The notes below the pieces were generated by a model. The model saw nothing but the letters and a program-made list of their open reading frames with translations, did not search any database and was not told the origin of the DNA. The translations under genes were made by a program, and so were the position numbers. From a virus: DNA of 35,570 nucleotides. The stretch spans positions 1 through 35,570 of the IMG/VR virus record IMGVR_UViG_3300045988_124184; one strand, given 5' to 3'. Numbering within the stretch: position 1 is the first letter of the stretch; every line of letters begins with the position of its first letter. Shown here piece after piece: positions 725 to 16,977 of this stretch.

Positions 725-1069
725 ATGATTATTAACGGCGTTGAACTAGAATGTGACGTTTTAGACGTTACAACCTTAAAAGCAATTAAGCAAGGAAGCG
801 AAAGGGTGGCGAACATAAATAAAGAAATCGCTCCCATTCAAGATGAAATCGAACAAATAGAAGCAATGTGTCATATTATTTTTGATTTTTTCAATCATAT
901 TTTTGGAGAAGGTACAAGCAAAAAACTATTTGGTGACAAAGTTAGCCTTGCTCTATGTATGGATGCATTTGAATCCTTTATGAAACAGAAAGCAGAGCAG
1001 GAAGAAGCCTTTCAAAAAAGGGCTGAAAAATACAGCGAAAACCGCAGTCAACGCCGTAAAAAAGCATGA
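725..1069 (+). CDS. Tail assembly chaperone-like protein (gpG analogue)
   Basis: 114 aa, acidic/helical, RBS AGGAGGA. It sits between the major tail protein and TMP and ends in an A6G run. Confidence 0.6.
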   Translation: MIINGVELECDVLDVTTLKAIKQGSERVANINKEIAPIQDEIEQIEAMCHIIFDFFNHIFGEGTSKKLFGDKVSLALCMDAFESFMKQKAEQEEAFQKRAEKYSENRSQRRKKA

Positions 1070-1665
1070 ATATCCTACTAGATAAATTGCCGACAGCCGT
1101 CGAGGTAGGCGGCAAGATGTATGATATCAATGCGGATTTTCGGACAGGAATCAAACTGGAAATGACTGCGATTAGCGAACAGGATGATACAGAAAAACTC
1201 ATGCAAATACTGCTGCTATACTATGGTGACATATCTTGTATTCCTGCTGATGTAGGGGCAGCTTTTACTGCGGTTATGAACTTTTATCACTGCGAAAAAG
1301 ACAATACTTCACAAGGCGGTACGACGACCAACAGGCGCACACAAATCTATTCTTTTGAGCATGACGCGCCGTATATCTATGCTGCATTTTTAGAACAATA
1401 CGGAATTGATTTAACGCAGGAGAATAATTTGCATTGGTGGCGATTCAAAGCAATGTTCGATTCTCTCAGTGAGAAAACTCAATTCGTTAAAATTATGGGC
1501 TATCGTTCCATGACCATCACAAAAGATATGAGCCCACAGCAGAAAGAGTTTTACAGGCGTATGCAGAAAACATATGCTATCCCTGTATCAAAAACCGAAC
1601 GAGAAAAGACCACTGCACTGGAGCAGGCATTATTAAACGGCGGTGACCTAACAGGATTGTTGTAA
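1066..1665 (+). CDS. Phage Gp15-family (A118 gp15-like) tail assembly protein
   Basis: 199 aa, ATGA overlap with the upstream gene, in the -1 frame relative to it, no own SD. The N-terminal pattern (V..GGK.YDIN.DFR..I..E) is as I recall for Pfam Phage_Gp15. Confidence 0.6.
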   Translation: MNILLDKLPTAVEVGGKMYDINADFRTGIKLEMTAISEQDDTEKLMQILLLYYGDISCIPADVGAAFTAVMNFYHCEKDNTSQGGTTTNRRTQIYSFEHDAPYIYAAFLEQYGIDLTQENNLHWWRFKAMFDSLSEKTQFVKIMGYRSMTITKDMSPQQKEFYRRMQKTYAIPVSKTEREKTTALEQALLNGGDLTGLL

Positions 1666-1678
1666 ATACTCACAAAAG

Positions 1679-1707
1679 TTGCTATATCTCTCTAAATATG
1701 ATAAAAT
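1679..1707 (+). promoter_or_regulatory. Sigma-A type promoter of the lipoprotein moron
   Basis: TTGCTA (1679-1684), 17-nt spacer, TGaTAAAAT extended -10 (-10 at 1702-1707), about 30 nt upstream of the 1738 start. Confidence 0.6.
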
Positions 1708-1737
1708 ATTCCATATTGATATAGGGGGAGAAAAAGA

Positions 1738-2250
1738 ATGAAAAAGATGATTGCATTTTTACTGATTGCATCGGCATTATCAGTTGGTTTGGTTGGCTGC
1801 GGAGGAGAGGCGCAGAATAGTAGTTCAATCAGTAATATATCTAGCGAAACTCAACTGTCATTATCAAAAATGAATGCTATTCAAATTACTGAATACTTGA
1901 AAGCGCAGGGACTTCCAATTACGAATGAAATCGATTATACTGAAGAAAATGACCCAAATAAATTATTGGGAAGACCTAACCAATATACCAGTAAAGTAAA
2001 TTTTGCTGATAGTCGAATTACTGAGCAATACGATATTGAAAACGACCCTATTGGTGGGACAATTGAAGTTTTTACTAACAGTGGTGATGCCACAAAACGT
2101 AAAGAATATGTAGAGGCTATTGCTCAAAATGTAAGTTTTGCAACACAGTATATATATCAATTTGACAATGTTTTAATGAGAATGGCTCATGAATTAACCC
2201 CAACTCAAGCTGCGGAGTACGAAGCAGCGCTACAGCAATTAGCTAAATAA
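1738..2250 (+). CDS. Lipoprotein, function unknown
   Basis: Signal peptide plus lipobox (LSVGLVG|C), RBS GGGGGAG, AT-rich relative to the flanking tail genes. Confidence 0.85.
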   Translation: MKKMIAFLLIASALSVGLVGCGGEAQNSSSISNISSETQLSLSKMNAIQITEYLKAQGLPITNEIDYTEENDPNKLLGRPNQYTSKVNFADSRITEQYDIENDPIGGTIEVFTNSGDATKRKEYVEAIAQNVSFATQYIYQFDNVLMRMAHELTPTQAAEYEAALQQLAK

Positions 2251-2262
2251 GGGGAGAAGGAC

Positions 2263-3297
2263 ATGAAAAAAGCAATTAGTGTTTTATTATTGACCGTCAT
2301 GTGTGCAATGGTTTTTGTAGGTTGTGGGAGTAGTGAGAATAAAACTACAAGTTCTACTTCAATTTCGCAAAGAGATACTATTAGTAAGTATTTACCTCAT
2401 AGCGAAAAAGTTACGTGGGATAGTAATGTATACGATGTTATGAATAATGATAATATTATAATGGATAATGACCACGCAATAGCAATGACAGCATATAGCC
2501 CTACAATCGAATCAATAACTTTTGACAGCGCAATGTATACTTTTGAGAATAGTAAGATTGACCGACTGTCTTATAGAAAAAAGGATGAAGGTGATTATCA
2601 AATTATTTCAAATACTATGAGTAAGTTATACGGGGAAAGTTATCTTGATACGGATGATGTAGTCGCATGGCATGTTATTTATCCGAATGGTGAAAAAGGC
2701 GATATTTCTCTGGTTAAAAATGCTTCAACTGGCTCGCTCGTGTTAATGTATTTGAAGTCGAGTGATGTTTCTGCATCAGAAGGGACAAGTACAAACACAT
2801 CTTCTGAAATCGCAGAAAAATCACCACAAGAAATCGTGTCTAAAATGGAAAAAATCCCTGTAAAAGATGAAATGTTTTTCGCTTCACCAGACGAATGTGC
2901 TGAAATTATTAATTTATACCTAGGGGAACTATCACCAATTGTACTTGGGGAAATGGTAACAGGAGAAACTTTTTCTTGGAAAGACTTTACCATATCAAAA
3001 GGTACAAACATTTCTTTTTTTGTAGATGAAACTAGGAAGAGAGTAGAATCCATTCATTTTAATAGTATTGCGACAAGAGATTATCCCGAAAAAAACTTTC
3101 AAGATTACTTTATGGCAACAATACTGGCAATTGATCCCAAAATGACACCTGAAGAATACGGGGAACTGTGCATAGAATTACGGTTTGGGCATCCGAGGAT
3201 TACAGAAGAAACGTATACAGTAGACCGAAATGGTTTTACCTACTCTTTAACTGCATTTGAAAATAACTGTTTTGTAGCTATTAGTCCTCAAAAATAA
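2263..3297 (+). CDS. Lipoprotein, function unknown
   Basis: Signal peptide plus lipobox (AMVFVG|C), RBS GGGGAGAAGG, 344 aa. Confidence 0.85.
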   Translation: MKKAISVLLLTVMCAMVFVGCGSSENKTTSSTSISQRDTISKYLPHSEKVTWDSNVYDVMNNDNIIMDNDHAIAMTAYSPTIESITFDSAMYTFENSKIDRLSYRKKDEGDYQIISNTMSKLYGESYLDTDDVVAWHVIYPNGEKGDISLVKNASTGSLVLMYLKSSDVSASEGTSTNTSSEIAEKSPQEIVSKMEKIPVKDEMFFASPDECAEIINLYLGELSPIVLGEMVTGETFSWKDFTISKGTNISFFVDETRKRVESIHFNSIATRDYPEKNFQDYFMATILAIDPKMTPEEYGELCIELRFGHPRITEETYTVDRNGFTYSLTAFENNCFVAISPQK

Positions 3298-3300
3298 CAC

Positions 3301-3338
3301 AAATACCAACTATCACTAAGGTAGTTGGTATTTTTATT
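3301..3338 (+). terminator. Intrinsic terminator after the lipoprotein pair
   Basis: Perfect 10-bp stem ATACCAACTA/TAGTTGGTAT, 9-nt loop, then TTTTATT. Confidence 0.8.
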
Positions 3339-3358
3339 GGAAAGATTAAAAAAATCTC

Positions 3359-3387
3359 TTGACATATGTACGTACATAAGTTATTAT
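3359..3387 (+). promoter_or_regulatory. Promoter with an embedded 14-bp perfect palindromic operator
   Basis: TTGACA (3359-3364), 17 nt, TATTAT (3382-3387). The spacer contains the perfect palindrome TATGTACGTACATA (3365-3378). Confidence 0.75.
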
Positions 3388-3420
3388 TTAAGTACGGACA
3401 ATAATCAGGAGGTGAATTAA

Positions 3421-3600
3421 GTGTCCCCAAAAGGTAGACCGACAGCAGATAAACGTAATAAACGATTTGAAATAAGATTATCAGAAGATACCTATAAAAC
3501 TTTAGAGGAGTGTTCAGAAATGTTACATATCTCTAAAGCGGAAGTAATTCACAAAGGTATTTCATTGGTCAAATCTGAGGTCGATAAACAAAAAAAATAA
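3421..3600 (+). CDS. Ribbon-helix-helix (Arc/CopG/MobC-like) DNA-binding protein, 59 aa (not in the ORF track)
   Basis: GTG start 8 nt after AGGAGGTG. The sequence VSPKGRPTADKRNKRFEIRLSEDTYKTLEECSEMLHISKAEVIHKGISLV fits a basic N-arm, beta strand and two helices. Confidence 0.7.
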   Translation: MSPKGRPTADKRNKRFEIRLSEDTYKTLEECSEMLHISKAEVIHKGISLVKSEVDKQKK

Positions 3601-3719
3601 CACAAACCGCCACTCGTCGAAAAAGTACGGAATGTGTTATTGAAGCGACCAAATTAGTCGTATAAATATTATACACTATACTTCTATTTTGGTCAAACCT
3701 AAAATAAGGAGTGTTAGTT

Positions 3720-4625
3720 ATGACAAGCTTAATGATGTTTGAAAAATGTAATGTGGAAATTATACAAAATAAAGATGGAACTTTATTATTTGAACTATTT
3801 TCAACTGGTGCAGCACTAGGATATGTTGTCTTTGGAAAAAATAAAAACAGACCTCTGCCGAATAAAGCTAGAATCTTAAAAGTATTGCAAAACGCTGAAA
3901 TTATGGGGTGTTTACATGGTGTAAACACCTATCTAACTGAATCAGAATTATTTGATTTTATGCTAGAAGCAAAGACGGAAAAAGTAAAACCTTTTCGAAA
4001 ATGGGTTACACAGGAAGTGCTCCCCTCAATTCGCAAAACAGGCAGTTATAGCCTAGAACAAAAACAAGAACAGCCATATGAGTACTTTGATAAGATATTC
4101 AACGGCGTACCTGTATTAACTACTTCGGATATAGCATACTTTACTGGGTTGCCGCAAACTAGTGTAGGATGGTATGTACGCAAAAGTGATTTGATTTGTG
4201 GCATCGACTTTTTTGTAGCAGAGGGCAGAGCGTTGGCAGAGATGAAAAAGCGACACCCTAAAATGTCTGCGATGATTTCAAAACTGCTGCTGATAACAAA
4301 GAGTGGTTTTGACAAGCTAATGAAAGAAAATGGTGTGCAGGTAGAGCAAATACCGTGCTTTAATACACCGACACATAAAGAAAAAACAAAAAAACTATAT
4401 GCAATGGTGCCGCAAAATGAAACTATACAGAACAAACTGCAACACATTCGTTCTAAAATGCAAGCACTTGATGAACTCATGATTTGCTACAATAGATATA
4501 ATGTCGAGGTTGAAGCCAGCAAAGGTTTTTTAAGCGCGATAAAAAGCGTAGGTATTGACATTATGACCGGCGTATTTGACTTAGAGGAAATCAAACCACA
4601 AACAACTACAGAAAAAGTTAATTAA
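3720..4625 (+). CDS. Antirepressor, Bro-N domain + ORF6N domain
   Basis: ATG at 3720 is 8 nt after AAGGAG. The Bro-N signature is present (FRKWVTQEVLPSIRKTGSY), with an ORF6N-like middle region (VPVLTTSDIAYFTGL...VGWYVRKS...FF...LLLITKSGFDKL). Confidence 0.8.
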   Translation: MTSLMMFEKCNVEIIQNKDGTLLFELFSTGAALGYVVFGKNKNRPLPNKARILKVLQNAEIMGCLHGVNTYLTESELFDFMLEAKTEKVKPFRKWVTQEVLPSIRKTGSYSLEQKQEQPYEYFDKIFNGVPVLTTSDIAYFTGLPQTSVGWYVRKSDLICGIDFFVAEGRALAEMKKRHPKMSAMISKLLLITKSGFDKLMKENGVQVEQIPCFNTPTHKEKTKKLYAMVPQNETIQNKLQHIRSKMQALDELMICYNRYNVEVEASKGFLSAIKSVGIDIMTGVFDLEEIKPQTTTEKVN

Positions 4626-4633
4626 TAATCAGA

Positions 4634-4666
4634 AGCATTGTACGAAAATGTACAGTGCTTTTTTTA
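4634..4666 (+). terminator. Intrinsic terminator after the antirepressor gene
   Basis: 10-bp stem AGCATTGTAC/GTACAGTGCT (one G-U pair), 6-nt loop, T7 run. Confidence 0.8.
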
Positions 4667-4683
4667 TACCTTTTTAAAGGAAG

Positions 4684-4842
4684 GTGGTACAAATTGAAAA
4701 AATAAAATGTCCCAGTTGTGGACAAACACTATGTAAACTTGAATATGGAAAAATAGAAATTAAATGCATAAGATGCAAAAAAATTATAACGATTACAAAA
4801 ACAACTGATATAAAAACGACAGAGCCTAGAGCCACACCATAG
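4684..4842 (+). CDS. Mu Com-like zinc-ribbon protein (~50 aa; not in the ORF track)
   Basis: (V/I)..EKIKCPSCGQTLCKLEYGKIEIKCIRCKKIITI has CxxC-15-CxxC and the IEI(K/R)C.RCK core of phage Mu Com. The start is uncertain: GTG 4684 or ATT 4693, the latter 5 nt after GGAAGGTGG. Stop is TAG at 4840-4842. Confidence 0.65.
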   Translation: MVQIEKIKCPSCGQTLCKLEYGKIEIKCIRCKKIITITKTTDIKTTEPRATP

Positions 4843-4890
4843 AGTAGTGAGCCGGTGCCTGCTTTTATTGACAAATAGGCAGGTGATTAT

Positions 4891-7800
4891 ATGGCAGATG
4901 GAAAAGTTGTAATCGAAACAGACCTTGATTCCAGTGGGATTCAGGCAGGATTATCAAAATTATCGAGCATAGCACGTTCAAGTGTGAAAGGAACTCTCAC
5001 GTCAATAGCCAGTGCGGGAACAGCCCTTGCGGGTTTGGGCAGCACTGCTATTAAAATAGGTGCAGACTTTGAGGCAGGTATGTCTGAGGTACAAGCTATA
5101 GCAAGAGCAAGTGCTTCAGATATGGAGCTTTTAAAGGAAAAAGCCAAAGAGATGGGCGCGGAAACAAAGTTCAGCGCAACAGAATCAGCCGCAGCGTTTA
5201 AGTACATGGCGCAAGCCGGTTGGAGTACAGAAGATATGCTGAATGGCATATCAGGGGTTATGTCTTTGGCTGCTGCCTCCGGTGAGGACTTAGCTTTAAC
5301 AGCGGATATTGTAACAGATTCGCTAACGGCATTCGGATTAGAAGCGAAGGATGCAGCACATTTTTCTGACGTTTTGGCTATGACTGCAAATGCGACGAAT
5401 ACGGACGTTGCAAATTTAGGGTATACGTTTAAGTATGTTGCACCTGTGGCTGGTGCATTGGGATACTCTATAGAAGATATGTCGGTTGCCATTGGCTTAA
5501 TGGCTAACTCTGGGATTAAAGCAGAAACAGCAGGCACAGCGTTAAGAACAACCTTAACGAATCTTGCAAAACCGACTCAGCAAATGACCGGCTACATGGA
5601 AGAACTGGGAATCTCTTTAACAGATGCGCAAGGAAATGTTAAGCCGTTTAACGAGGTTATGATTGACTTGCGAGAAGGCTTTGAAGGATTAACCGAGGCG
5701 CAGAAAGCTGAGTATGCCGCAGGTATTGCAGGCAAAGAAGCAATGTCTGGGTTACTTGCAATTGTTAATGCAAGTGATGAGGATTTTGCAGCGCTAACTG
5801 CACAAATTAATAACTGTAATGGTGCAGCAGAGGAAGCTGCAAAAATCATGCAGGATAACCTTAAAGGCAGTGTTGAGCAATTAGGCGGCGCCCTTGAAAC
5901 ATTAGGAATTGAATTTTACGAAAGTGTAGATACTCCAATACGTACCATTGTTGATTCTGCAACCTCTATGGTTGATCAGTTAACAAAAGCGTTCAAAGAC
6001 GGCGGTTTATCTGGGCTGGTAAGTGAACTAGGTACGGTATTCGCAGAAGTTGCAACACAAGCAGCAAACAGCGCACCCAAAATGATAGATGCGGCAACAT
6101 CTATGATAACTTCGTTTCTTGACGGCATCAGTCAAAATTCAGGACAGATCTCAAATGCAGCTGTTAAGATAGGTGAATCATTAATAAACGGTATTGCTCA
6201 AATCATACCGCGAGTTGCAGAAGTAGGAGTTGAAATTGTTGCTTCTCTCATTTCAAATCTACTTGGTAGTGATGTAGGACGAAGTGTTGAGGAATTGGGA
6301 AAAACAATTATCGACAGTTTCAAAACAATTGCTAGTGCTGTTTCAGGTGCGCTCAATAGTCTAAAACCTGCATTTTCTACCTTTATAAGTACAGTATCAA
6401 ACATTGCAAAAGCTGTAATACCTCCGCTTACAAAAGTAATTGAGATATGCATTTCTGCCCTCAAACCTATGGCGCCCATATTGCTTGGTGTAGCCGGTGG
6501 TTTTACCGCGTTAAAAATAGTAAAGACTGTAACGGGGCTTATCAAGAAGTTTACTGAGACAGAAATTGTATCGAATACCATTACAACGATACAGAACGGT
6601 TTGCTTTGGGCTAAGATTGCGGCAACGGAAGTATTAACCGGAAAAATTACGCTTGCACAAGCAGCGCAACAACTTTGGAATATCGCAATGGGACAAAATC
6701 CGATTGGTGCAGTAGTAACCGCAATCGGCGTATTTGTTGGCGTTTTAAGCGGTTTGGCAGCTGCTTTGAGTGGAACGAATAGTGAGTATCAAAATGCAGT
6801 CAACTCTCTTAATGACCTCAAGGAAGCACATGAAGAAGTAAGGTCTGAACAGCAAAAAGCACTTGAAGCGGATTTTAAAGAGATTGACCAAATTAATGTT
6901 TTAAAAACGGAGTTGGATAAGCTTGTAGACAGCAATGGAAAAATTAAAGACGGATATCTTGACAGGGCAACTGCTATTGCAGGTGAACTTGCGGAAGCAA
7001 CAGGACTTGAAATAGAAATTATTGACGGACAGATCCAAAAATACGGAGAACTTGGAGAATCGATTGACGCGGTCATTACGAAAAAGCAAATGGCAGCTCT
7101 CACTGATAGTTTGCAAGAGATATCCGACCACGCAGAATCACAGCTTGACGAAGCCAGAGCATACCTTGAAACGGTGACAAAAGCATACAATGATGCGCAA
7201 GCTGCGTATGACAGGGCGAAAGAATACGCAGAGCGCACAGGGGATGACTCCAAGTTAGGAAGCTTAGAACGAGACCTAAAAAATAAACAAGCTGAAATGG
7301 AGAAGCAGATAGCGCTCGTAGATAGTTTGCGAGAAGATATAGCGATGGGAACAGAAGCACTTGCTGTATCGGCATCAGGCGATGCGAAGGTTATGAGCGA
7401 TTTCATGACCAGAGTTTCAGTGAAAGTTGATGAAACTGGAAAAGCAATTATTCAAAGTGAAGCATCTACTTATGCCGAGAGAGAAAGACTTGCAAGTGAG
7501 TATCGTGATATGGCCGAAAGAACAACTGACCAGTATCTTAAAGATTTATATATCAAGCAAGCAGAAGAATTAGAACGGCAAAACGCACAAATGGATTCTT
7601 CATTAGGAATACAAATAGCACTAATCGACAGCAAAGGTGAGCAATTCAACCTATCGTACGCCGCATTAATGGATAAAGCTGCGGAAGGTATAACAAATGG
7701 CGGTGTCGGTGTTGACTTAGCCATGCAGGAAAATATGTTAGCTATTGTGACAGCCATTACAAATGCTCAATTGCCTGTGGAAGAACAGACAAGATTGTTG

Positions 7801-8649
7801 GCTGACCTTCAAACACAAGTGTTTCAAAATAATGCTCCAAATGTTGGAGCAGCAGAGCAAAGTACTATGCAGTCAGTTTTAGATGCAATTTATAGTACAA
7901 ATCCTGGCATGGCCAGTGCAGTTCAAGCATTGGTGAACGCTGGAATTTTTGAAATGGAGAACGGAAAAATTGGTTTCTCTGATAAAGCAAAAGAAATGGG
8001 TTTGGACGGCAATGAAACTTTAAGAGGATACATTTCAGAGTTTGAAACAACTTCAAAAAATATTGCAGTGGGTGCTGCAGCAGGTGTTAAGGCTGGTGCC
8101 TGGAATTTTATTCAACAAGCTGAAGACATGGCGAAACAAGGTCTTAAAAACTTTAAGCATGTGCTTGGAATAACATCTCCTTCAAAAGAGTTCATTAAAG
8201 CTTCAAAATGGATACCAGAAGGCGCAGCACAGGGCGTGAAAAATAACGCAAAAATCGCTACGGATGCAATATCTGCTATGGCAAATGATATGACATCTGA
8301 GTATGAAGCTTCATTGGATGACTTTACAACCACAGGCATAAAGGATGCTTTTGATAAGCTACCAGAGCAAGAAATTAAGCTGGTCGGACTTTTGGAGAAA
8401 ATCAAAGGTTTAGACGCCACCGCCCTTATGGACAAAGCCAGAGCGGCAGTATATGCAAATCAAACGGCTGTGGCAGGTGCGGCAGTGAGAAGCAGTTATA
8501 TGATAAACACAGGTATGTCACAGAGCGCAAACAGTGGTGGAGACAGGCAAACAGTGATTAACTTTAACCAACCTGTAGAAAGTCCGGATGCAACAGCAAG
8601 AGCAATCAATAGGATTTTTACTTTTGGATTGGCAGGTGATAAAGGATGA
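4891..8649 (+). CDS. Tail tape measure protein
   Basis: 1252 aa. The N-terminal core resembles TP901-family TMPs (FSATESAAAFKYMAQAGWS...). It has hydrophobic central segments and long coiled-coil stretches. Confidence 0.95.
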   Translation: MADGKVVIETDLDSSGIQAGLSKLSSIARSSVKGTLTSIASAGTALAGLGSTAIKIGADFEAGMSEVQAIARASASDMELLKEKAKEMGAETKFSATESAAAFKYMAQAGWSTEDMLNGISGVMSLAAASGEDLALTADIVTDSLTAFGLEAKDAAHFSDVLAMTANATNTDVANLGYTFKYVAPVAGALGYSIEDMSVAIGLMANSGIKAETAGTALRTTLTNLAKPTQQMTGYMEELGISLTDAQGNVKPFNEVMIDLREGFEGLTEAQKAEYAAGIAGKEAMSGLLAIVNASDEDFAALTAQINNCNGAAEEAAKIMQDNLKGSVEQLGGALETLGIEFYESVDTPIRTIVDSATSMVDQLTKAFKDGGLSGLVSELGTVFAEVATQAANSAPKMIDAATSMITSFLDGISQNSGQISNAAVKIGESLINGIAQIIPRVAEVGVEIVASLISNLLGSDVGRSVEELGKTIIDSFKTIASAVSGALNSLKPAFSTFISTVSNIAKAVIPPLTKVIEICISALKPMAPILLGVAGGFTALKIVKTVTGLIKKFTETEIVSNTITTIQNGLLWAKIAATEVLTGKITLAQAAQQLWNIAMGQNPIGAVVTAIGVFVGVLSGLAAALSGTNSEYQNAVNSLNDLKEAHEEVRSEQQKALEADFKEIDQINVLKTELDKLVDSNGKIKDGYLDRATAIAGELAEATGLEIEIIDGQIQKYGELGESIDAVITKKQMAALTDSLQEISDHAESQLDEARAYLETVTKAYNDAQAAYDRAKEYAERTGDDSKLGSLERDLKNKQAEMEKQIALVDSLREDIAMGTEALAVSASGDAKVMSDFMTRVSVKVDETGKAIIQSEASTYAERERLASEYRDMAERTTDQYLKDLYIKQAEELERQNAQMDSSLGIQIALIDSKGEQFNLSYAALMDKAAEGITNGGVGVDLAMQENMLAIVTAITNAQLPVEEQTRLLADLQTQVFQNNAPNVGAAEQSTMQSVLDAIYSTNPGMASAVQALVNAGIFEMENGKIGFSDKAKEMGLDGNETLRGYISEFETTSKNIAVGAAAGVKAGAWNFIQQAEDMAKQGLKNFKHVLGITSPSKEFIKASKWIPEGAAQGVKNNAKIATDAISAMANDMTSEYEASLDDFTTTGIKDAFDKLPEQEIKLVGLLEKIKGLDATALMDKARAAVYANQTAVAGAAVRSSYMINTGMSQSANSGGDRQTVINFNQPVESPDATARAINRIFTFGLAGDKG

Positions 8650-9476
8650 TAAGATTTGTAAGGGATGACGGCTTAACATTCAATATTTCAGATTATTTTA
8701 AAATTGTCAGTATTGAAGGATTAGGCACAATCACACAGGAGATATTTACAGAAAAACGAGCAGTTGGTGACGGCGACATCATAACAGGAACAAGGGTTAG
8801 CGCTCGAACAGTGACAATTACCGCTTGTAATGACTATTCCGGACAATTTGATACATCACGTGAAAAAATAAATCGTTTTTTTAATCCGAAAAATTCCTTT
8901 AAGATGTATGTCACGTATAAAAACAATACGGTGTGGTGTGAGTGTATTGTAGATGCACGAGATCTACCAACAGATAATATTTTTTCCCCGCAAATGTTTA
9001 CGCTATCTGTATTTTGTCCCAGTCCTTATTTTAAATCTTATGATGATTTTGGTAAGGATTTATCCAGTGTGTCCCCGATGATGGGATTTCCTCTCATGAT
9101 TTCGCAAGAAAAAGGATTTGTTGCAAGCGTGAGAAATTTTTCACAGCATGTATTTGTACCGAATGATGGTGCAATCGACACGTATTGTACCGTTGTGATT
9201 AAACCGGACGAAAATGTTAGTGGATTAAAAATCTATAAAAATGAAAAAGAATATATTTTATTTACAGTTGAGTTGAAAGTACATGAAACTGTGAAAATTG
9301 ACTTTGAGCGTAGAACAATTGAAATAGCAGGGAAAAGGATTCCAAACTGTATTGATAGGAAAAGTACTTTTTTTGCTTTGGATAAAGGAGGATGTACCAT
9401 ATCTTACGATGCCAACGAGAATGTAACAACGACACACATATATTTATACTACAACCAGCTTTATGCGGGGGTGTAA
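8646..9476 (+). CDS. Distal tail protein (Dit / siphovirus tail family)
   Basis: 276 aa, ATGA-coupled to the TMP; position and N-terminal pattern are typical. Confidence 0.75.
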   Translation: MIRFVRDDGLTFNISDYFKIVSIEGLGTITQEIFTEKRAVGDGDIITGTRVSARTVTITACNDYSGQFDTSREKINRFFNPKNSFKMYVTYKNNTVWCECIVDARDLPTDNIFSPQMFTLSVFCPSPYFKSYDDFGKDLSSVSPMMGFPLMISQEKGFVASVRNFSQHVFVPNDGAIDTYCTVVIKPDENVSGLKIYKNEKEYILFTVELKVHETVKIDFERRTIEIAGKRIPNCIDRKSTFFALDKGGCTISYDANENVTTTHIYLYYNQLYAGV

Positions 9477-9477
9477 T

Positions 9478-10497
9478 ATGGATGTGATTTTTTTAGATGC
9501 AGATTTTAATATGATAAAGTCTGTAGAATATATTAATTTGCAGTGGAATAGAAAGTATTACGAATGTGGGCAGTACTCCATTCAGATTTTAGCGGAAGAT
9601 TTTGAGGAAACCTTCTGTTATGTCTATAGATCTTCCGAAAAAGAAGTCGGAGTGGTTCAAAAGATAGAGTACACCAGTGAGGAACGCGGAGAGTTTGTAC
9701 AAATAAGTGGCTTTTTCTTAGAAAGTATGCTGAACAATTATATTATGCACCCCGCTTTTTCATATAGCGGTAGTTTAACAAACTGTATTTTTCATGTTAT
9801 TACAACATTTTGTACCGGTCTTGGTCCTCTGAGAACAAATTTGGAACAAGTCCCTAGTAAAAAAATATCGATTCAGGCCACAGGAGATGAAGTAGGAGAT
9901 TTTTTGTTTTCACTTTTAAAAGAAAATGAATGTAGCCTAACGTTTACACGCAACTACGTTGATAAATGTTTTGAGTTCAAAGTGGAGAAAGGGCTTGATA
10001 GAACAGCTGATATAGCCCCTACACTTAATGTTGAGCCTGCAATTTTTAATCAGAGCTGGGGACATTTTAAAAGTCTGAAAGTGGTAACGGATACAAGCAA
10101 TTATAAAAACTATGCTGTTGTTGCCGGCAGCGGTGAAGGTGAGCAAAGAAAAACAGTAACTGTGGATAAATCTAATGGAAAAACTTTGCAACGACTTTAT
10201 GTGGATGCAAGAGATTTACAGCAAAAAGAAGGAATGTCTTTACAAGAATATCTTGACATTTTATCTACTCGAGGAGTTGAGAAGCTAAGTAAACATAACA
10301 AAATCTTAAATATAAGCTTTGACCTCATAGGTGATTTAATCTATAAGAAAAATTTCGATTTAGGAGATAAATGTGACATTATTCTAAAAAATATGGGTGA
10401 GTATCAATCGCGAATTATTGGCGTAAATGAAACAGTCAAAGAAAACAGAAAGGAAATAAACGTTATTTTCGGGGATAAAGTGCCAAGAAGAAAATAA
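9478..10497 (+). CDS. Tail-tip protein, siphovirus Gp37-like family
   Basis: ATG at 9478 follows GGGGGTG. The N-terminus MDVIFLDADFNMIKSVEYINLQWNRKYYECGQYSIQI matches my recollection of the Sipho_Gp37 family. Confidence 0.6.
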   Translation: MDVIFLDADFNMIKSVEYINLQWNRKYYECGQYSIQILAEDFEETFCYVYRSSEKEVGVVQKIEYTSEERGEFVQISGFFLESMLNNYIMHPAFSYSGSLTNCIFHVITTFCTGLGPLRTNLEQVPSKKISIQATGDEVGDFLFSLLKENECSLTFTRNYVDKCFEFKVEKGLDRTADIAPTLNVEPAIFNQSWGHFKSLKVVTDTSNYKNYAVVAGSGEGEQRKTVTVDKSNGKTLQRLYVDARDLQQKEGMSLQEYLDILSTRGVEKLSKHNKILNISFDLIGDLIYKKNFDLGDKCDIILKNMGEYQSRIIGVNETVKENRKEINVIFGDKVPRRK

Positions 10498-10513
10498 AAA
10501 GGAAGGTGATTTT

Positions 10514-11677
10514 TTGGAAAGTATATTTTTTGATAGTCAGGTGACATATGACGAGTACGGAACACCTGTATACGATAGACCCAATAGCGCAGAGCAGTTA
10601 AGAGCAACCTTTGCCTCATTGTTGTCTAATGGCATCGTGTCTACAAGAACCAGCAGTATGGCATCGGAAGTAGGATTTATTGTGGATGCGGTAGGAGGAA
10701 TGGAAGTAGCTGTAAATAAAGGTGTGTGCTGGATAAATGGCTCTTGTGGAAAAGAGTCCAGCCGGCGAACATTCACACTGGATGCAGGAATGGAACAACC
10801 GAGATATGACAGTGTTGTGCTTCGTTGGGACAATAGGCAAGCTGCAAGAAATATAGACATTTTTGTTAAGAAAGGAATCCCGGGGGGTGACCCTACAATC
10901 CCACTGCTGGAAAGGAATTCATCGGTATATGAACTTCGGCTTGCAAACATTTTAGTTCAGGCGAATACATCGGCGGTAACAACAAAAAATATTACAGATA
11001 CAAGACTTGCTACAGAGGATTGCGGCTTAGTTGTAGGACTTGTGAAAAACATCGATACTTCTCAACTGTACAAGCAGATACAGTCAGATTTATATGACTT
11101 TAAATCAACGGAGCAAGCAGAGTTTATGCGTTGGTTTGAAACGATTCAAAATATTTTAGATGAAAATGTTGCTGGAAACTTACAAAAACAAATTGATACA
11201 AAAGTTCCGATGTCCCGCACGATAAACGGAAAGGCGTTAACAGGTAATATCACACTTACAGTGGACGACATTGGAACAAGTACAATCTTTTTAGTATCGC
11301 ATCCTGTGGGAAGTCTGTTTGAAACAACGGTTTCCACGAACCCGGGTACATTGTATGGCGGCACATGGGCAGCGTGGGGAGGCGGTCGAACCCCTGTAGG
11401 AGTAAATCCTGCCGATACCGATTTTAAAACGGTAGAGAAAACAGGCGGTGAAAAAACACATACTTTAACAGTGGATGAAATTGCTCCTCACTCTCACATT
11501 GAAACTATATACTGGAATGCTGGGGGATCAGGAACAGCCCATCCGGCAGCGGTTGAAGCAGGAGACCCTAGAAAGTACGGAGGACTTGTCGCACGCACAG
11601 AAAATACAGGTGGCGGACAAGCACACAACAACTTGCAACCGTATATCACATGCTATATCTGGAAAAGAACCACATAA
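10514..11677 (+). CDS. Tail fibre / receptor-binding protein with a C-terminal phage tail-collar domain
   Basis: TTG start after GGAAGGTGA. The C-terminal GGEKTHTLTVDEIAPHSH...GGGQAHNNLQPYITCYIWKRT is the tail-collar signature. Confidence 0.8.
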   Translation: MESIFFDSQVTYDEYGTPVYDRPNSAEQLRATFASLLSNGIVSTRTSSMASEVGFIVDAVGGMEVAVNKGVCWINGSCGKESSRRTFTLDAGMEQPRYDSVVLRWDNRQAARNIDIFVKKGIPGGDPTIPLLERNSSVYELRLANILVQANTSAVTTKNITDTRLATEDCGLVVGLVKNIDTSQLYKQIQSDLYDFKSTEQAEFMRWFETIQNILDENVAGNLQKQIDTKVPMSRTINGKALTGNITLTVDDIGTSTIFLVSHPVGSLFETTVSTNPGTLYGGTWAAWGGGRTPVGVNPADTDFKTVEKTGGEKTHTLTVDEIAPHSHIETIYWNAGGSGTAHPAAVEAGDPRKYGGLVARTENTGGGQAHNNLQPYITCYIWKRTT

Positions 11678-11690
11678 AGGAGGAAAAAAC

Positions 11691-12104
11691 ATGGCACTGG
11701 AAAAAGAATTAATCAATGGAAAAGGCGTAAAAACTGCTTATCATCGTATAGACAGTATCTCTATGGTGGACGGCATTAAAGTCACGGTAAAAAGCTATAC
11801 AGATGAAAGCTATAGACAGCAGGAGAAAGATAGGGATGCACTTATCAAGCGACAGGAAGAAGTAAAAAAGCAGCTTGAAGAAGAAATGGCAAAAACGGGC
11901 GATGAATACGACAAAGAAAAAGTAATTGCGTTGACTGAAGAAAATAATGCAATTGGCTTTCCTACAGTAATTGATTTGGCGGTATTCGTTCATGAATTTC
12001 AGTATCCTCTAGATAAAGATGCGGTAGTCAGCTACGAAGCTATGTACCAAAAGCTAAAACAAGAGTCACTGTTTGAAAATGCAAAAGATGTATTGGAGGA
12101 GTAA
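11691..12104 (+). CDS. Hypothetical tail-associated protein (137 aa)
   Basis: ATG at 11691 follows AAGGAGGAAAAAAC. The longer tracked ORF (from 11475) overlaps the fibre gene out of frame. Confidence 0.7.
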
Positions 12105-12106
12105 AT

Positions 12107-13213
12107 ATGCAACTATCAGTAATCGATGTAAGCGAACATCAAAGAAATATTAACTGGGAAAAAGTAAAGAACGCGGGCGTGGTCGGTGCCATGATACGTA
12201 CAGGCTATGGCATTAAAGACCCGAACCAAATCGATAAGTACTTTTACAACAATCTATCAGGCTGTCAAAACGTTGGTATGCCTTATGGATTTTATCACTA
12301 TTCTTATGCTATGGATATAGCAGGTGCAGAGCAGGAAGCAGACTTTTGTCTTGAACTTATCGCAGGCAGTAATCCGCAATATCCAGTGGCATTTGACATG
12401 GAAGAAAATCGTCAAGCTGCATTAGGTAAAGCGGTATGTACCAATATGGTACTCGCTTTTTGTAACAAAATTCGTGCAGCGGGTTACATACCAATGCTGT
12501 ATACAAACTTAAACTGGGCAACTAATTATATTGACATGGCGCGCATTGACGCGGCAGGCATAGACGTATGGTTGGCACAATATAACACACAGTGCGACTA
12601 CAAAGGTGCATATACCATGTGGCAGTATTCCTCTAAAGAGGTTATTGACGGTATTACAGCCAATACCGCAGACATGAATTGGTGCTATAAAGATTACACC
12701 AACGGAGCCGCTTCCACACCTACACCACAACCAGAACCAAGCTATGACACATATACAGTTATGGCAGGGGATACATTAAGCGGTATTGCTGCAAAGTTTG
12801 GCACCACTTATCAAGAGTTGGCGGCAATCAACGGTATTGCAGACCCGAACGTGATTCATGTAGGACAAATCATCAAGCTCAAGGGCGATGTGGCCGATGT
12901 GCCACAGAGTGGGACTACTTACACCGTGCAGGTAGGGGACACACTGAGCGGAATCGCTGCAAAGTACGGTACTACCTACCAAGAACTAGCTGCTTTAAAT
13001 GGTATCGCAGACCCCAATATCATTCATGTAGGACAAGTTTTGAAAGTCGCAGGTGGTACAGGTGGTCGCACTTACACAGTGCGGTCCGGTGACAATCTTT
13101 GGGATATCGCACAAGCACAGCTTGGAGATGGTGCGCGTTTTAGAGAGATTATCGCCATGAATGGCCTTTTATCCGATACTATCTACCCCGGTCAAGTGCT
13201 ACAGCTGCCATAA
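12107..13213 (+). CDS. Endolysin: GH25 muramidase + three LysM repeats
   Basis: The N-terminus is GH25-like ([24 protein letters not shown]). There are three LysM units ([34 protein letters not shown]). Confidence 0.92.
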
Positions 13214-13225
13214 TCGGAGGTAGCT

Positions 13226-13561
13226 ATGAGTGTAAATTTAGATATTATTTTATATATATGTGGTGTTATCACATCCACATCAGCAGCGGTGGCTATCGTC
13301 ATCAAGCTGATAAATAAAAAGATAACCCGAACTATCGAGGAAAACTCGGCGATTCGCAACATCCATACTGCCCTTGTATCACAAATACGCTATCAAATAG
13401 ATACAGCTTTAAGACGGGCAAAGACAGAAGGACATGTAAGTAACTACTCGATGTCCGCTTTAGAATCTTTATTTGAAGTGTATAAGGCTATGGGCGGCAA
13501 CGGCTTTGTTGAAAGTGAAATGGAAGAGATAAGAAAGATAAATCAAAATGGAGGGAAATGA
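13226..13561 (+). CDS. N-terminally membrane-anchored lysis-cassette protein
   Basis: One N-terminal TM helix (IILYICGVITSTSAAVAIVIKLI), RBS GGAGG, located between the endolysin and the holin-like gene. Confidence 0.6.
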   Translation: MSVNLDIILYICGVITSTSAAVAIVIKLINKKITRTIEENSAIRNIHTALVSQIRYQIDTALRRAKTEGHVSNYSMSALESLFEVYKAMGGNGFVESEMEEIRKINQNGGK

Positions 13562-13562
13562 C

Positions 13563-13886
13563 ATGGATTTTACAGAATATATTAAGCCAGAATTATTAAT
13601 ATTAGTTCCGGTTTTATATGTCATCGGTATGGCTATCAAGAAAACATCTCTTATCGCAGATAAGCTAATACCTCTTGCAGTAGGTGCAGCAGGTATTCTA
13701 CTATCCATCATCTATGTACTGGCTACCAGTGACCTAGGTAGTCCGCAAGCTGTAGCTATGGCAATCTTTACAGCATTGACACAAGGTGTACTGGTAAGCG
13801 GTGCAAGTGTGTATGCGAATCAGATTTTTAAGCAGTTTAAAGATAGTGGTACTAAAGATGATAGTACAAATACAGAACAAAAATAA
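13563..13886 (+). CDS. Holin-like protein (2-3 TM helices, charged C-tail)
   Basis: ATG at 13563 is 8 nt after GGAGGG. The TM segments plus the KDSGTKDDSTNTEQK tail are typical of Gram-positive phage holins. Confidence 0.7.
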   Translation: MDFTEYIKPELLILVPVLYVIGMAIKKTSLIADKLIPLAVGAAGILLSIIYVLATSDLGSPQAVAMAIFTALTQGVLVSGASVYANQIFKQFKDSGTKDDSTNTEQK

Positions 13887-13896
13887 GTAAAAAGAA

Positions 13897-13936
13897 GTCC
13901 TCCCTTGCATAATATAAGGGAGGGCTTTTTTATTTT
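13897..13936 (+). terminator. Intrinsic terminator closing the lysis cassette
   Basis: 10-bp stem GTCCTCCCTT/AAGGGAGGGC (one G-U pair), 9-nt loop, T6 run. Confidence 0.85.
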
Positions 13937-14038
13937 TACAAATTATTTTTTAAAAAGTTTCCTTGTTTAGGGAAATTTTTAGGTTTTTTAGGGGGATTTA
14001 TAGAATGAATAAATTTCATCTAAATTAAAATTATTACA

Positions 14039-14098
14039 TATACTGTTATATAAAATTGGTTATACGTATTGAATAGTTTGCCTATACTGTGGTATAGT
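14039..14098 (+). promoter_or_regulatory. Promoter of the three-gene cassette with two repeated operator-like sites
   Basis: TTGAAT (14069-14074), 18 nt, TGgTATAGT (-10 at 14093-14098). TATACTGTtaTATA is at 14039-14052 and TATACTGTggTATA at 14083-14096; the second overlaps the -10. Confidence 0.6.
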
Positions 14099-14173
14099 AA
14101 AATAAAGATACAAAGTGCAAGTGTAGTTTTTTTAATCTATTTATAGGTTATTTTTGATAAAGGAGGGTGAAAT

Positions 14174-14437
14174 ATGAGTGAAAATATTGTAAACCCTATA
14201 TTCGCAGATGCTCACCGTATTTTTTTAGTTGAGAATGCGATAAATATTCAATTCGGATTATCTGATAAAGACGGGGAAGATAAGGAACCAGAGGTAATCG
14301 GAAACGTATTTGTTACCCCTGAATTAGCTTTGCAATTAGCCGGTTCTATACTGATGGCTTGTACAGAGTATCAAGATAAATATAAACATGATTTAGGGTT
14401 AAAACTAGACATTAAAACAGATTCAGGAGAAAAATAA
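14174..14437 (+). CDS. Cassette gene A: small acidic protein, possibly DUF3467-like
   Basis: 87 aa, RBS AAGGAGGGTG. The pattern FADAHRIFLVENAINIQFGL-[acidic loop]-VIGNVFVTPELALQL...EYQDKY recalls DUF3467; this is from memory only. Confidence 0.75.
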   Translation: MSENIVNPIFADAHRIFLVENAINIQFGLSDKDGEDKEPEVIGNVFVTPELALQLAGSILMACTEYQDKYKHDLGLKLDIKTDSGEK

Positions 14438-15674: not shown

Positions 15675-15702
15675 GCATATAAAAAACGGCGTAGATACGT
15701 AT

Positions 15703-15758
15703 AGCGCACTTGACTGGGGGTCAAGGGGCCGCAGGTTCAAGTCCTGTCACTCGGACCA
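15703..15758 (+). other. attP core: 3' portion of tRNA-Pro(GGG), from the D-stem 3' strand to CCA
   Basis: GCGC-A-CTTGA-CTGGGGG-TCAAG-GGGCC-GCAGG-TTCAAGT-CCTGT-CACTCGG-A-CCA. It has an anticodon loop with GGG and G37, a T-arm and the acceptor 3' strand. The 5' acceptor and the 5' D-stem are absent. Confidence 0.8.
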
Positions 15759-15760
15759 TT

Positions 15761-15807
15761 AAAAACCGCGTAGTTTAGCCGTTTTAGCTATTCTACGCGG
15801 TGTTTTT
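15761..15807 (+). terminator. Hairpin terminator downstream of the tRNA fragment
   Basis: Perfect 9-bp stem ACCGCGTAG/CTACGCGGT, ~19-nt loop, flanked by A5 upstream and GTTTTT downstream. Confidence 0.65.
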
Positions 15808-15849
15808 ATTGTGTGAAAAATTGTGTTAAATTATCAAAAATTTTGTTTT

Positions 15850-15871
15850 ATTGTAACGCTATTGTAACGTT
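15850..15871 (+). repeat. Tandem 11-bp direct repeat ATTGTAACGCT/ATTGTAACGTT (putative arm-type sites, P' arm)
   Basis: One-base variants of the 15653-15674 repeat in the same orientation, abutting the int stop codon. Confidence 0.7.
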
Positions 15872-16899
15872 TATTTTAGTAAGCCGATTGCATTTTTTAA
15901 GGTGTTGATACTTTGGTGTATATATGTGTTTGCGGTAGTATCATAGTCGGTATGACCAAGTATTTTTTGAATATCTTCTGGGCGTGCACCTGCTGCTGAT
16001 AGCATTGTCGCACATGTGTGCCTTGTACAGTGTGGAGAGAGTGGGCGGACTCCGATTTTTTCTAAAGCAGGATAGTAGCATTTTTCACGGAAGAGCCGTG
16101 CAGTATATGGAGTGCCATCTTCTTTACAAAAAATAGTTTTTCCTTTTTTTGATAGCCATTTTTCAACAATAGGAAGAATCTTAGCGTGAACCGGAACATT
16201 TCTGTTTTTACCAGCTGTCGTTTTACTTCCACCAGTCAGAATATTATTTTTAGAGTCATAAGAAAAAGGCGTTAAATTTAAAAATTCATTTATACGAAAT
16301 CCTGTATAGCACATGCATAAAATTACATCCGCAAAAGGGACTATGTCGACCGATTTTTCAATTTTTGCAAGTTCAATATCTGTAAAGCTGTCTTTGCTTT
16401 TTGTTTCAGCTTTAGGAAGGTTGATAAACTCTGCGTAATTTTTACTTACAATATCGTTTTCAAGTGCATACTTATAAAGCTGTACCAAAAGTAGCTTTAT
16501 CTTTGATAGTGAGGATTGCGACATGCTAGCATTATCGTCAATAATTTTTTGCATTTGGCTTGTGCGAATATCTCGAAAGCGTATCCTATAGAGTTCAGAT
16601 AACTTTTTATATGCAGCGTTGTAGTTATCTATCGTTTGCTTTGAAATGTTCCTATAAGCGATTTCAGACCACTCTGTGAATACCTCAGAAAAAATAATGT
16701 TGAATTTTTCTGTTGGGTTCTGCTGATATTGAAATAAGGCTTCTTTTGCTTCTCTTGACGTCTTAAAGTGTCCTATCACTATTCGCTTTGGTTTTCCTTC
16801 GTCTGTATATATAGCGGGGGCTATAGCCACCCACGGACGCGATTTACTGTCTTTACGCTTGCAAACCGTTCCAGTTCCATTGCCTCTCTGTTTGCTCAT
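15871..16899 (-). CDS. int: Tyrosine recombinase (phage integrase)
   Basis: 342 aa. The C-terminal catalytic signature is present (HCTRHTCATML...ILGHTDYDTTANTYIH). RBS AGGAGGTAC. It lies adjacent to attP. Confidence 0.95.
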   Translation of the reverse strand: MSKQRGNGTGTVCKRKDSKSRPWVAIAPAIYTDEGKPKRIVIGHFKTSREAKEALFQYQQNPTEKFNIIFSEVFTEWSEIAYRNISKQTIDNYNAAYKKLSELYRIRFRDIRTSQMQKIIDDNASMSQSSLSKIKLLLVQLYKYALENDIVSKNYAEFINLPKAETKSKDSFTDIELAKIEKSVDIVPFADVILCMCYTGFRINEFLNLTPFSYDSKNNILTGGSKTTAGKNRNVPVHAKILPIVEKWLSKKGKTIFCKEDGTPYTARLFREKCYYPALEKIGVRPLSPHCTRHTCATMLSAAGARPEDIQKILGHTDYDTTANTYIHQSINTLKNAIGLLK

Positions 16900-16915
16900 T
16901 TTTAATTGTACCTCC

Positions 16916-16960
16916 TAAAAAAGGGCGCAAAAAAGCAGCCCCTTGATTTTTACGGGCTGC
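16916..16960 (-). terminator. Intrinsic terminator on the - strand, immediately upstream of the int SD
   Basis: On the - strand: GCAGCCC-12 nt-GGGCTGC followed by TTTTTTGCGCCCTTTTTT, then AGGAGG and the int ATG. Confidence 0.65.
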
Positions 16961-16971
16961 AATGGTACAAT
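16943..16971 (+). promoter_or_regulatory. Near-consensus + strand promoter facing away from int
   Basis: TTGATT (16943-16948), 17 nt, TGgTACAAT (-10 at 16966-16971). Confidence 0.55.
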
Positions 16972-16977
16972 ATTTTT

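Follow-up and report, generated by a model that had tools for sequence, protein, structure and literature searches.

It is textbook knowledge that Salmonella phage P22 has a secondary immunity region in which an antirepressor is combined with a ribbon-helix-helix (RHH) repressor and an antisense RNA. We describe here a locus of similar logic at positions 3301-4666 of a 35.6-kb metagenomic scaffold (IMG/VR record IMGVR_UViG_3300045988_124184, analysed over its full length of 35,570 nucleotides and referred to below as the window), in which an RHH gene, a predicted antisense RNA gene and a gene for a Bro-N protein lie together in the tail operon of a temperate siphovirus. In the immI regions of phages P1 and P7 and in the antirepressor operon of N15, a c4-type antisense RNA holds ant off and the specificity of the RNA determines heteroimmunity. 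An upstream open reading frame (ORF) is the target of the c4-type RNA, which is released by processing of the same transcript, and these systems have no RHH autorepressor.

The P22 immI region (the 'ant moron', consisting of mnt, arc, sar and ant) is a late-operon insert located next to sieA (PMC2629481). A burst-then-shut-off logic has been described both for P22 immI (PMC2629481) and for the establishment of plasmids controlled by CopG and RNAII (PMC5717011), and the pairing site of RNAII in pMV158 lies directly before the repB initiation signals (PMC4485353). In the AriS-type proteins of Listeria the N-terminal AntA, Bro-N or pRha part regulates the phage and the ANT/KilAC part inhibits the SOS response (PMC9043618), while in characterised Gram-positive temperate phages a putative antirepressor gene follows cro in the early region (PMC3952083). 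In the literature that could be searched, the coverage of which is incomplete, no RHH/antisense/Bro cassette has been described in the late operons of Gram-positive phages.

The explanation that we favour as a whole, with a probability of roughly 0.6, is that the locus is a moron in which expression of a Bro-N regulator is held down by negative control at two levels. We hold its regulatory anatomy, listed here, to be highly probable.

3301-3340, plus strand: left boundary, an intrinsic terminator hairpin, AAATACCAACTA...TAGTTGGTATTT, followed by a T-run, which closes the upstream lipoprotein gene
3337-3387, plus strand: cassette promoter, with an A/T-rich upstream element, TTATTGGAAAGATTAAAAAAATCTC, a -35 element at 3359-3364, a 17-nt spacer and a -10 element at 3382-3387
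3365-3400: putative RHH operator, with arm 1, TGTACGTACA, at 3367-3376, then 14 bp with the -10 element, then arm 2, AGTACGGACA, at 3391-3400
3421-3600, plus strand: 59-residue CopG-like RHH protein, a predicted autorepressor, with a GTG start after AGGAGGTG
3590-3661, minus strand: predicted cis-antisense RNA of about 72 nt, with a 5' hairpin, a 4-nt linker, a terminator hairpin (3596-3641) and a U-run
3696..3668, minus strand: antisense promoter, with -35 TTGACC (3696..3691), 17 nt and -10 TATAAT (3673..3668)
3647-3719, plus strand: predicted structured Bro leader, with a hairpin (3647-3664/3677-3694), an anti-Shine-Dalgarno (anti-SD) sequence ACTTCT (3680-3685) and a Shine-Dalgarno (SD) sequence AAGGAG (3707-3712)
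3720-4625, plus strand: 301-residue Bro-N regulator, with Bro-N at residues 1-107, a middle domain resembling a winged helix-turn-helix (wHTH) at about 121-205 and a helical hairpin at about 225-296
4631-4666, plus strand: right boundary, an intrinsic terminator, GAAGCATTGTAC-GAAAAT-GTACAGTGCTT, followed by T7

The cassette works like arc-sar-ant of P22 and copG-rnaII-repB of pMV158 and is a member of neither family, since homology to Arc, Ant and Rep, a counterpart of Mnt and coverage of the ribosome-binding site (RBS) by the antisense RNA were all looked for and none was found. Like P22 immI, it is an independently expressed insert in a late operon, and it adjoins candidate exclusion lipoproteins where P22 adjoins sieA. 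As at P22 Pant (TTGACA-[Oarc]-TATATT), the putative RHH operator lies in the promoter spacer and the small RHH gene comes first. In both systems a two-hairpin antisense RNA of about 70 nt, here a predicted one, has its terminator on the RHH stop codon, and an effector gene of about 300 codons is followed by a terminator.

An analogy with immI had been drawn in a preliminary description of this DNA. It is upheld by the late-operon insertion and by the putative RHH operator in the spacer, and is stronger than was then apparent because a sar-like antisense RNA is predicted as well. It does not extend to the proteins, which are not homologous: the RHH protein is CopG-like and not a member of the Pfam Arc family, and the effector consists of Bro-N, a wHTH-like domain and a helical hairpin in place of P22_AR_N and P22_AR_C. 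Unlike in P22, there is no divergent mnt gene, ORF or Pmnt, the upstream region (2263-3297) being a lipoprotein gene on the same strand. In P22 sar is transcribed from within ant and extends over the ant RBS, whereas the antisense promoter of the cassette lies upstream of the SD and its RNA ends 44 nt before it. The setting is also unlike that of P22, with a Gram-positive gut Clostridia host, a siphovirus and an insertion point between chaperone-position genes and the tape measure gene.

With pMV158 the cassette shares a CopG-type RHH gene cotranscribed with a dosage-critical downstream gene, and a predicted intergenic countertranscript that would pair upstream of the initiation signals and not on them. 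It differs in that the cargo is a Bro-N protein and not a Rep initiator, and in that it is a phage moron and not a replicon. The antisense RNA is also longer, with 70-90 nt and two hairpins compared with 48 nt and one hairpin for RNAII.

Promoter, putative operator and RHH protein

The 59-residue ORF had been described as of RHH type, and this is borne out. It matches the repressor family phrog_876 (1e-12), and several of its 341 homologues carry the NCBI names RHH or CopG. The match to Pfam RHH_1 (E = 1e-3) falls slightly under the curated cut-off, and otherwise only RHH_3 was matched. Every top PDB match to the AlphaFold model (pLDDT 85) is an RHH protein, the best being CopG of pMV158 (1b01, 2cpg and 1ea4; probability 0.99, TM score 0.83, r.m.s. 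difference 1.2 Å), with which it shares 29-31% sequence identity. Neither protein of the cassette is homologous to Arc or Ant. The Arc family (PF03869) gave no match to the 59-residue ORF, hhalign against Arc was insignificant and Arc ranked only 39-50 among the structural matches, far below CopG; the comparison of Bro with Ant is given below.

The fold of this small protein also bears on whether the cassette might be a toxin-antitoxin or abortive-infection pair, with the RHH protein as antitoxin and Bro as toxin. A small RHH gene preceding a larger gene behind an autoregulated promoter would suit such a pair, RHH antitoxins are among many of the top structural matches, and genuine toxin-antitoxin pairs occupy the same slot in relatives. 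However, helices 22-35 and 39-58 of the model fill the 59-residue chain, and because they reach residue 58 no toxin-binding C-terminal tail is left. The best match, CopG, is a pure repressor, Bro-N is no known toxin fold, PADLOC returned no match for the cassette, and a structured 119-nt spacer with an antisense gene is unlike the type II layout. We therefore consider such a pair very improbable.

The control region was compared across nine alleles of the regulatory unit, drawn from about 60 related loci (L numbers). Allele A is that of the window; B is found in L006 and L095, C in L181, D in L185, E in L193 and L012, F in L189, G in L192, H in L197-L204 and I in L215. RHH allele A is paired with three different Bro-N alleles (in the window, L007 and L186), which indicates that front end and cargo are shuffled independently. 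The allele I front end of L215 drives two 67-residue genes and a pRha protein in place of Bro-N.

The promoter reported earlier, TTGACA (3359-3364), 17 nt and TATTAT (3382-3387), is found at exactly these positions and scores 11/12. Its upstream element together with CTCTTGAC, which includes the -35 element, is kept in alleles B, C, D and E and in the allele A loci, and a looser A/T-rich version of the upstream element occurs in alleles F, H and I. The perfect 14-bp palindrome noted in the spacer, TATGTACGTACATA (3365-3378), is present and is unique in the window at up to three mismatches, but is insignificant when taken alone, as a 7+7 inverted repeat arises in 7.5% of shuffles of the promoter region. 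It is the comparison across alleles that makes it convincing.

In the MSPKGRPT-type RHH family the putative operator consists of two inverted 10-bp arms flanking the -10 element. In the window arm 1 is itself palindromic and lies inside 3365-3378, and arm 2 spans the predicted transcription start. The corresponding operators are TGTCCGTACA-14-TGTACGGACA in allele H, TGTATCCACA-14-TGTGGATACA in allele D and TGTACTGACA-12-TGTCAGTACA in allele F, and the two-arm layout is also seen in allele I and in an extra upstream RHH unit of L197 (shuffle p <= 0.005 for the inverted arms of H, D, F and X). The CopG operator overlaps the -35 element, whereas the arms of the cassette flank the -10.

The surroundings of the -10 element vary together with the RHH allele. 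Alleles A and H, the RHH proteins of which are 79% identical and have the identical β-strand KRFEIRLS, have near-identical arms, TGTACG(T/G)ACA. Alleles B and C represent a second RHH family; their RHH proteins are homologous but have different β-strands, and their operators are TGTTAC-GT-GTAACA and TGTATC-GT-GATACA, respectively, each present twice; allele E has direct TGGTGAT repeats. Short of a binding assay, this co-variation of operator and RHH protein is the strongest available evidence that the RHH protein would bind its own promoter. On this evidence the gene order appears to be that of a repressor of RHH fold placed first, with co-varying operator arms inside its own promoter.

Two copies of a 9-mer, AAGTACGGA, had also been noted, and both exist (3390-3398 and 3623-3631). 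The first coincides with the second operator arm, which is conserved in allele H as TGTACGGACA. The second is at chance level, and another exact 9-mer repeat occurs within the same 441 nt. As a candidate third operator the copy at 3623-3631 was rejected; it is absent in allele H.

Some loci carry more than one control module. In L197 and L201 (4694-4942) there is a second RHH unit in tandem, with its own promoter and an operator with arms TGTGTCACC/GGTGACACA, and in L200 (about 4626-4930) a remnant RHH and antisense unit lies upstream of the RHH-Bro unit. These stacked modules are loosely reminiscent of the pairing of mnt with arc.

Predicted antisense RNA and the Bro leader

A predicted antisense RNA gene, overlooked in the preliminary description, lies between the RHH and Bro genes. 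Its minus-strand promoter is present in nine of nine alleles, with scores out of 12 of 11, 11, 11, 10, 10, 11 and 12 for A-G, 12 for H and 11 for I. In shuffling tests, which covered alleles A-G (H and I were scored only), the frequencies were 0.0005-0.026 for each allele, and the 11/12 of the window was attained in 5 of 2000 shuffles.

The predicted RNA has the same architecture in all nine alleles, in each of which it lies between repressor and effector and ends at the repressor stop codon: a short 5' hairpin, a linker of 2-5 nt, a long hairpin and a U-run, giving a total of 70-90 nt. The terminator hairpin overlaps the RHH stop codon. The RNAs fold with z scores of -3.9 to -7.4 (-5.45 for the window), and the antisense strand is more stable than its complement by 5-17 kcal/mol in alleles A-H (6.9 kcal/mol in the window) and by 10 kcal/mol in allele I. 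This asymmetry arises from one to seven G-U pairs (three in the window), which become A-C mismatches on the opposite strand. Compensatory changes in the stems, with conservation of the loops, are seen between D and F and between H and I. The annotated P22 sar folds alike (z -5.3), with the same strand asymmetry and with its terminator on the arc stop codon. The evidence for the RNA thus consists of folding allele by allele, strand asymmetry and pairwise compensatory changes. Rfam returned no family, either at gathering thresholds or at E <= 1, and a MAFFT/RNAalifold consensus of seven antisense alleles gave nothing, the sequences being unalignable.

One could argue instead that the minus-strand promoter and the hairpins are by-products of A+T-richness and that the locus is a plain RHH-controlled two-gene operon. 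In keeping with this, promoter-like sites in the wider 3-kb region number 10, compared with 11 expected. Against it, a promoter of 10-12/12 recurs at the same relative place in nine otherwise unalignable alleles, and each is followed by two hairpins and a U-run with strand-specific G-U pairs, so that we give this argument very little credence.

The hairpin after the RHH gene was also considered as a terminator of the sense strand and rejected, as it is weaker on the plus strand and no allele has a downstream T-run. The second palindrome of the preliminary description, GTATAAATATTATAC, is indeed present at 3660-3674, but it is not an operator of the Bro gene: it forms the apex of the leader hairpin and holds the antisense -10 element (3673..3668).

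No plus-strand promoter was found before Bro, the best candidates in the spacer scoring 8/12 in alleles A-G and 9/12 in allele I; Bro must therefore be read through from the RHH promoter. The 5' arm of the leader hairpin falls within the antisense target, which ends 44 nt before the Bro SD in the window and 39-49 nt before it in alleles A-H. In every allele a pyrimidine-rich anti-SD lies beside or inside the 3' arm of the leader hairpin. When the antisense-bound state was modelled by holding the target unpaired, the accessibility of the SD in the window fell from 0.34 to 0.17, and it also dropped in alleles C, E, G and H. The modelling favours control of translation by way of a released anti-SD; RNase III cleavage or interference by convergent transcription is possible as an alternative mode of antisense action.

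Mobility of the cassette and possible role of its cargo

Judged from its flanks and its distribution, 3301-4666 is a mobile, self-contained accessory cassette (moron) within the tail operon, with its own promoter, two flanking terminators and a vacant site in close relatives. The left terminator (12-bp perfect arms, -17.1 kcal/mol, z -5.7) is common to cassettes in siphovirus and myovirus backbones and is kept at empty sites. The right terminator, which had been described as strong, proved to be so (hairpin 4631-4666, -16.4 kcal/mol, z -6.8, then U7) and is likewise conserved in both backbones and at empty sites. Its GTAC-containing stem was tried as an operator and rejected, being invariant when the RHH allele changes. 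Given strong terminators within the tail operon, either late transcription must be resistant to termination or the tape measure gene must have a promoter of its own.

The cassette is missing from phages whose Gp15 and tape measure proteins are 94% and 95% identical, respectively, to those of the window. Empty sites were seen in L206, L209 and L213. In the first two the left flank (the terminator hairpin and TTTTTATTGGAAAAATT...CCTCTT) is fused directly to the right flank (...AAGCATTGTACAGAAATGTACAGTGCTTTTTTTATACC), and in L213 the right terminator alone remains. The GC content of the slot is 32-35%, compared with 37-46% in its surroundings. A sheathed myovirus also carries the cassette, placed directly before its tape measure gene and with Bro 92% and 76% identical, and the allele H cassette (RHH 79% identical to that of the window) occupies three other late-operon positions in other phages. 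The unit is widespread: in the assembly collection one Bro allele was found in 277 blocks and one RHH allele in 461 blocks. Searches of other collections gave less: megablast of window positions 1000-5000 against GenBank phages gave no match, tblastn against phages gave distant Bro-N and RHH matches only, contig scans with the Bro alignment gave mostly generic Bro-N matches and few close loci (L012 being the only useful one), and the DNA pattern of the conserved left flank was found in one viral contig only.

In relatives the slot holds Ltp-family (PF07553) lipoproteins, DUF4352 proteins, Phd/YoeB toxin-antitoxin pairs and extra Bro-N/ANT and pRha genes, with Bro-N, Bro-N/ANT and pRha genes stacked in L186. 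Conserved terminator hairpins bracket each moron, and in L006 further copies of the left hairpin stand between consecutive cargo units (L006 4971-5009 and 5579-5653). These hairpins may serve as recombination linkers. In L215-L222 an allele I unit with a 180-residue pRha-domain protein was observed near a cI/Cro-like pair, outside the late operon.

The Bro gene had been described as a 301-residue antirepressor ORF with Bro-N and ORF6N signatures. The ORF and its Bro-N domain (PF02498) stand, with 30.5 bits compared with a Pfam gathering cut-off of 25.6 and with matches in 24 of 24 homologues, and the structural matches of the Bro model in BFVD are Bro-N proteins. The ORF6N signature does not: PF10543 gave no match at E <= 1 for the Bro protein of the window and none at E <= 0.01 in 24 homologues including it. 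One distant relative, P0107, does carry ORF6N. In the model (pLDDT 79.6) the middle β/α domain has only weak winged-HTH matches. The homologues combine at least six Bro-N alleles and two C-termini with a near-invariant middle domain. The label 'antirepressor' can only be inferred, from family annotation and from the analogy of the circuit. The characterised Listeria relatives with Bro-N, AntA or pRha N-termini (AriS) have a different mode of action (PMC9043618).

Bro resembles the Bro-N/AntA/pRha regulators, such as Listeria AriS and those of Streptococcus thermophilus phages, in its Bro-N domain and in the shuffling of N-terminal domains on a constant body (PMC9043618). It might be an AriS-like modulator of host or phage development that dampens SOS or times lytic genes, an antirepressor by annotation only. 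The phage regulation and SOS inhibition reported for AntA/Bro-N/pRha proteins of Listeria comK phages (PMC9043618) would fit this, as would the pRha cargo behind the same front end in L215 and the stacked genes of L186. Bro and its 23 close homologues have no detectable ANT/KilAC domain, however, and AriS-like genes belong to the early region, unlike this late-operon moron with its dedicated RHH and antisense control module. Such a role seems to us quite improbable.

A somewhat better, though still unlikely, alternative is that Bro is a DNA-binding regulator expressed by the prophage for defence or exclusion, repressing or mis-regulating incoming phages or satellites. In that case the cassette would join the lipoproteins and toxin-antitoxin pairs as a further lysogenic-conversion or defence moron. 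Both Bro-N and the wHTH-like middle domain have DNA-binding folds, the variation of Bro-N on an otherwise constant body resembles a shift in target specificity, the slot gathers Ltp-type exclusion lipoproteins and Phd/YoeB modules, and RHH homologues occur in Streptococcus satellite elements. Constitutive defence, on the other hand, needs the opposite of what double negative control predicts, namely that Bro is off in the lysogen, and PADLOC gave no match.

Under the explanation that we favour, a moron with a doubly repressed Bro-N regulator, the strong σA-type promoter would fire on entry into a naive cell containing neither RHH protein nor antisense RNA, giving a pulse of RHH and Bro. RHH dimers would then bind the two arms and close their own promoter, and the constitutive countertranscript of about 72 nt would pair with the RHH-Bro intercistronic RNA and suppress residual Bro synthesis. 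Translation of Bro would be lowered indirectly, via the freed anti-SD, by RNase III cleavage or by transcriptional interference. An incoming copy would be silenced in trans wherever a cassette of the same allele is already resident, and such silencing, if it occurs, would explain the joint diversification of RHH protein, operator and antisense RNA. The nine RHH/operator/antisense alleles fit a specificity of the 'immunity' type.

The most speculative step is the last, in which Bro would be an anti-immunity factor that, like Ant, opposes a cI-type repressor, either a resident one or its own, as antirepressor or counter-regulator. That the job of Bro is to counter a cI-type repressor is suggested by analogy, and we rate it at somewhat short of even odds. 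The cassette also occurs in a mosaic myovirus whose cI is 100% identical, which is circumstantial, the sample being too small for a test; in this small sample the cI relatives did not include the backbone relatives with empty slots.

Several points weigh against this explanation. The activities of the RNA and of the proteins are all predictions. Bro is unrelated to P22 Ant (BLASTP E = 0.53), which consists of P22_AR_N and P22_AR_C, and shows no similarity to any experimentally proven antirepressor. In the PDB the Bro profile had no sequence match and the Bro model no significant fold match. By domain searches Bro also appears to lack the ANT/KilAC domain found in many annotated antirepressors. 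SOS induction needs no antirepressor, because the cI of this phage has a Peptidase_S24 domain, and the front end says little about the role of Bro because it also drives pRha cargo. As to control, the distance of 39-49 nt between the antisense RNA and the SD excludes direct occlusion of the RBS, and in alleles B, D and F the SD is predicted to be closed (accessibility near zero) with or without the antisense RNA.

The three-part logic of P22 is here built from non-homologous proteins and exists in at least nine specificity alleles, which is evidence for a convergent or very ancient circuit design. In the searchable literature P22-like secondary immunity regions are undescribed for phages of Gram-positive bacteria or gut anaerobes. 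We regard as rather doubtful the broader proposal that the RHH and countertranscript front end is a portable entry-burst/immunity module which shares an origin with CopG/RNAII of rolling-circle plasmids, forms a heteroimmunity layer and moves by way of its terminator linkers. If true, the alleles would define a second, RNA-and-RHH heteroimmunity layer gating the Bro or pRha anti-immunity protein of a superinfecting phage, the cassettes would move between siphoviruses and myoviruses by recombination at conserved terminator 'linker' sequences, and they would make up a large undescribed cassette family of gut Clostridia phages. The cassettes could help in studying conflicts between prophages and prophage induction in the gut microbiome and could supply orthogonal repressor, operator and antisense parts for Clostridia, and the co-varying RHH β-strands and operators form a natural data set for the rules of DNA recognition by RHH proteins.

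Phage backbone and neighbouring genes

The same phage was assembled elsewhere, from other samples, at 35.6-35.8 kb. Its gene set is that of a temperate siphovirus, with a Cro-like gene, a replication module and terminase, head, tail and lysis genes in addition to the genes listed here.

725-1665: tail-chaperone-position genes (DUF6673 and Gp15)
1738-2250: lipoprotein 1, signal peptide ending in LVGC, filling the rest of the slot
2263-3297, same strand as the cassette: lipoprotein 2, signal peptide ending in FVGC, the upstream neighbour of the cassette
4684-4842: Com-like zinc-ribbon ORF, directly upstream of the tape measure gene, matching phrog_6417 ('translational regulator', 1e-7)
4891-8649: tape measure gene
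15871-16899, minus strand: integrase
17180-17851, minus strand: cI-like repressor with HTH_3 and Peptidase_S24 domains

Placement of the cassette in the tail operon, between the chaperone-position genes (725-1665) and the tape measure gene, agrees with the preliminary description. Apart from 3720-4625, no further Bro or Ant gene was found within the window. Identical or clustered proteins bear source names (Acutalibacteraceae, Oscillospiraceae, Ruminococcus, [Eubacterium] siraeum and 'Clostridium sp.' metagenome-assembled genomes) that indicate uncultured gut Clostridia. The two lipoproteins of the slot are candidate superinfection-exclusion or defence morons.

The Com-like zinc-ribbon gene was considered as a member of the cassette and rejected, as it is present in relatives without one. 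It is a backbone gene, being 92% conserved in all close relatives, including those that are cassette-free. Its match to Pfam Zn_ribbon_Com is only 0.04, and its start is ambiguous, with a GTG at 4684 directly adjoining the SD and an ATT in frame at 4693. A 173-residue protein (26994-27515) with a weak Sigma70_r4 match, encoded immediately before the small terminase gene, is a candidate activator of late genes, which would be relevant to the passage of late transcripts through the terminators of the slot.

The contig of a sheathed myovirus, IMGVR_UViG_3300045988_143465 (L223, L188), was compared with the window at 12096-13980 and 15683-19347. It shares the int-cI-cro lysogeny module (98.7% DNA identity over 3.7 kb, with 100% identical cI) and has a lysis module 88.7% identical to that of the window, while its structural genes are unrelated, demonstrating mosaicism between morphotypes.

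A GP20-b RNA motif (RF03003, 42.6 bits, above the gathering threshold) occurs on the plus strand at 32703-32761, at the 5' end of the ORF at 32729-33367. In L087, L090 and L092 (about 9169-14193) the tape measure gene is split into pieces of 220 and 1039 residues. The splitting ORF, of 331 residues, has faint matches to DUF4379 and DUF2726 and may be an intron or a homing-endonuclease-type insertion.

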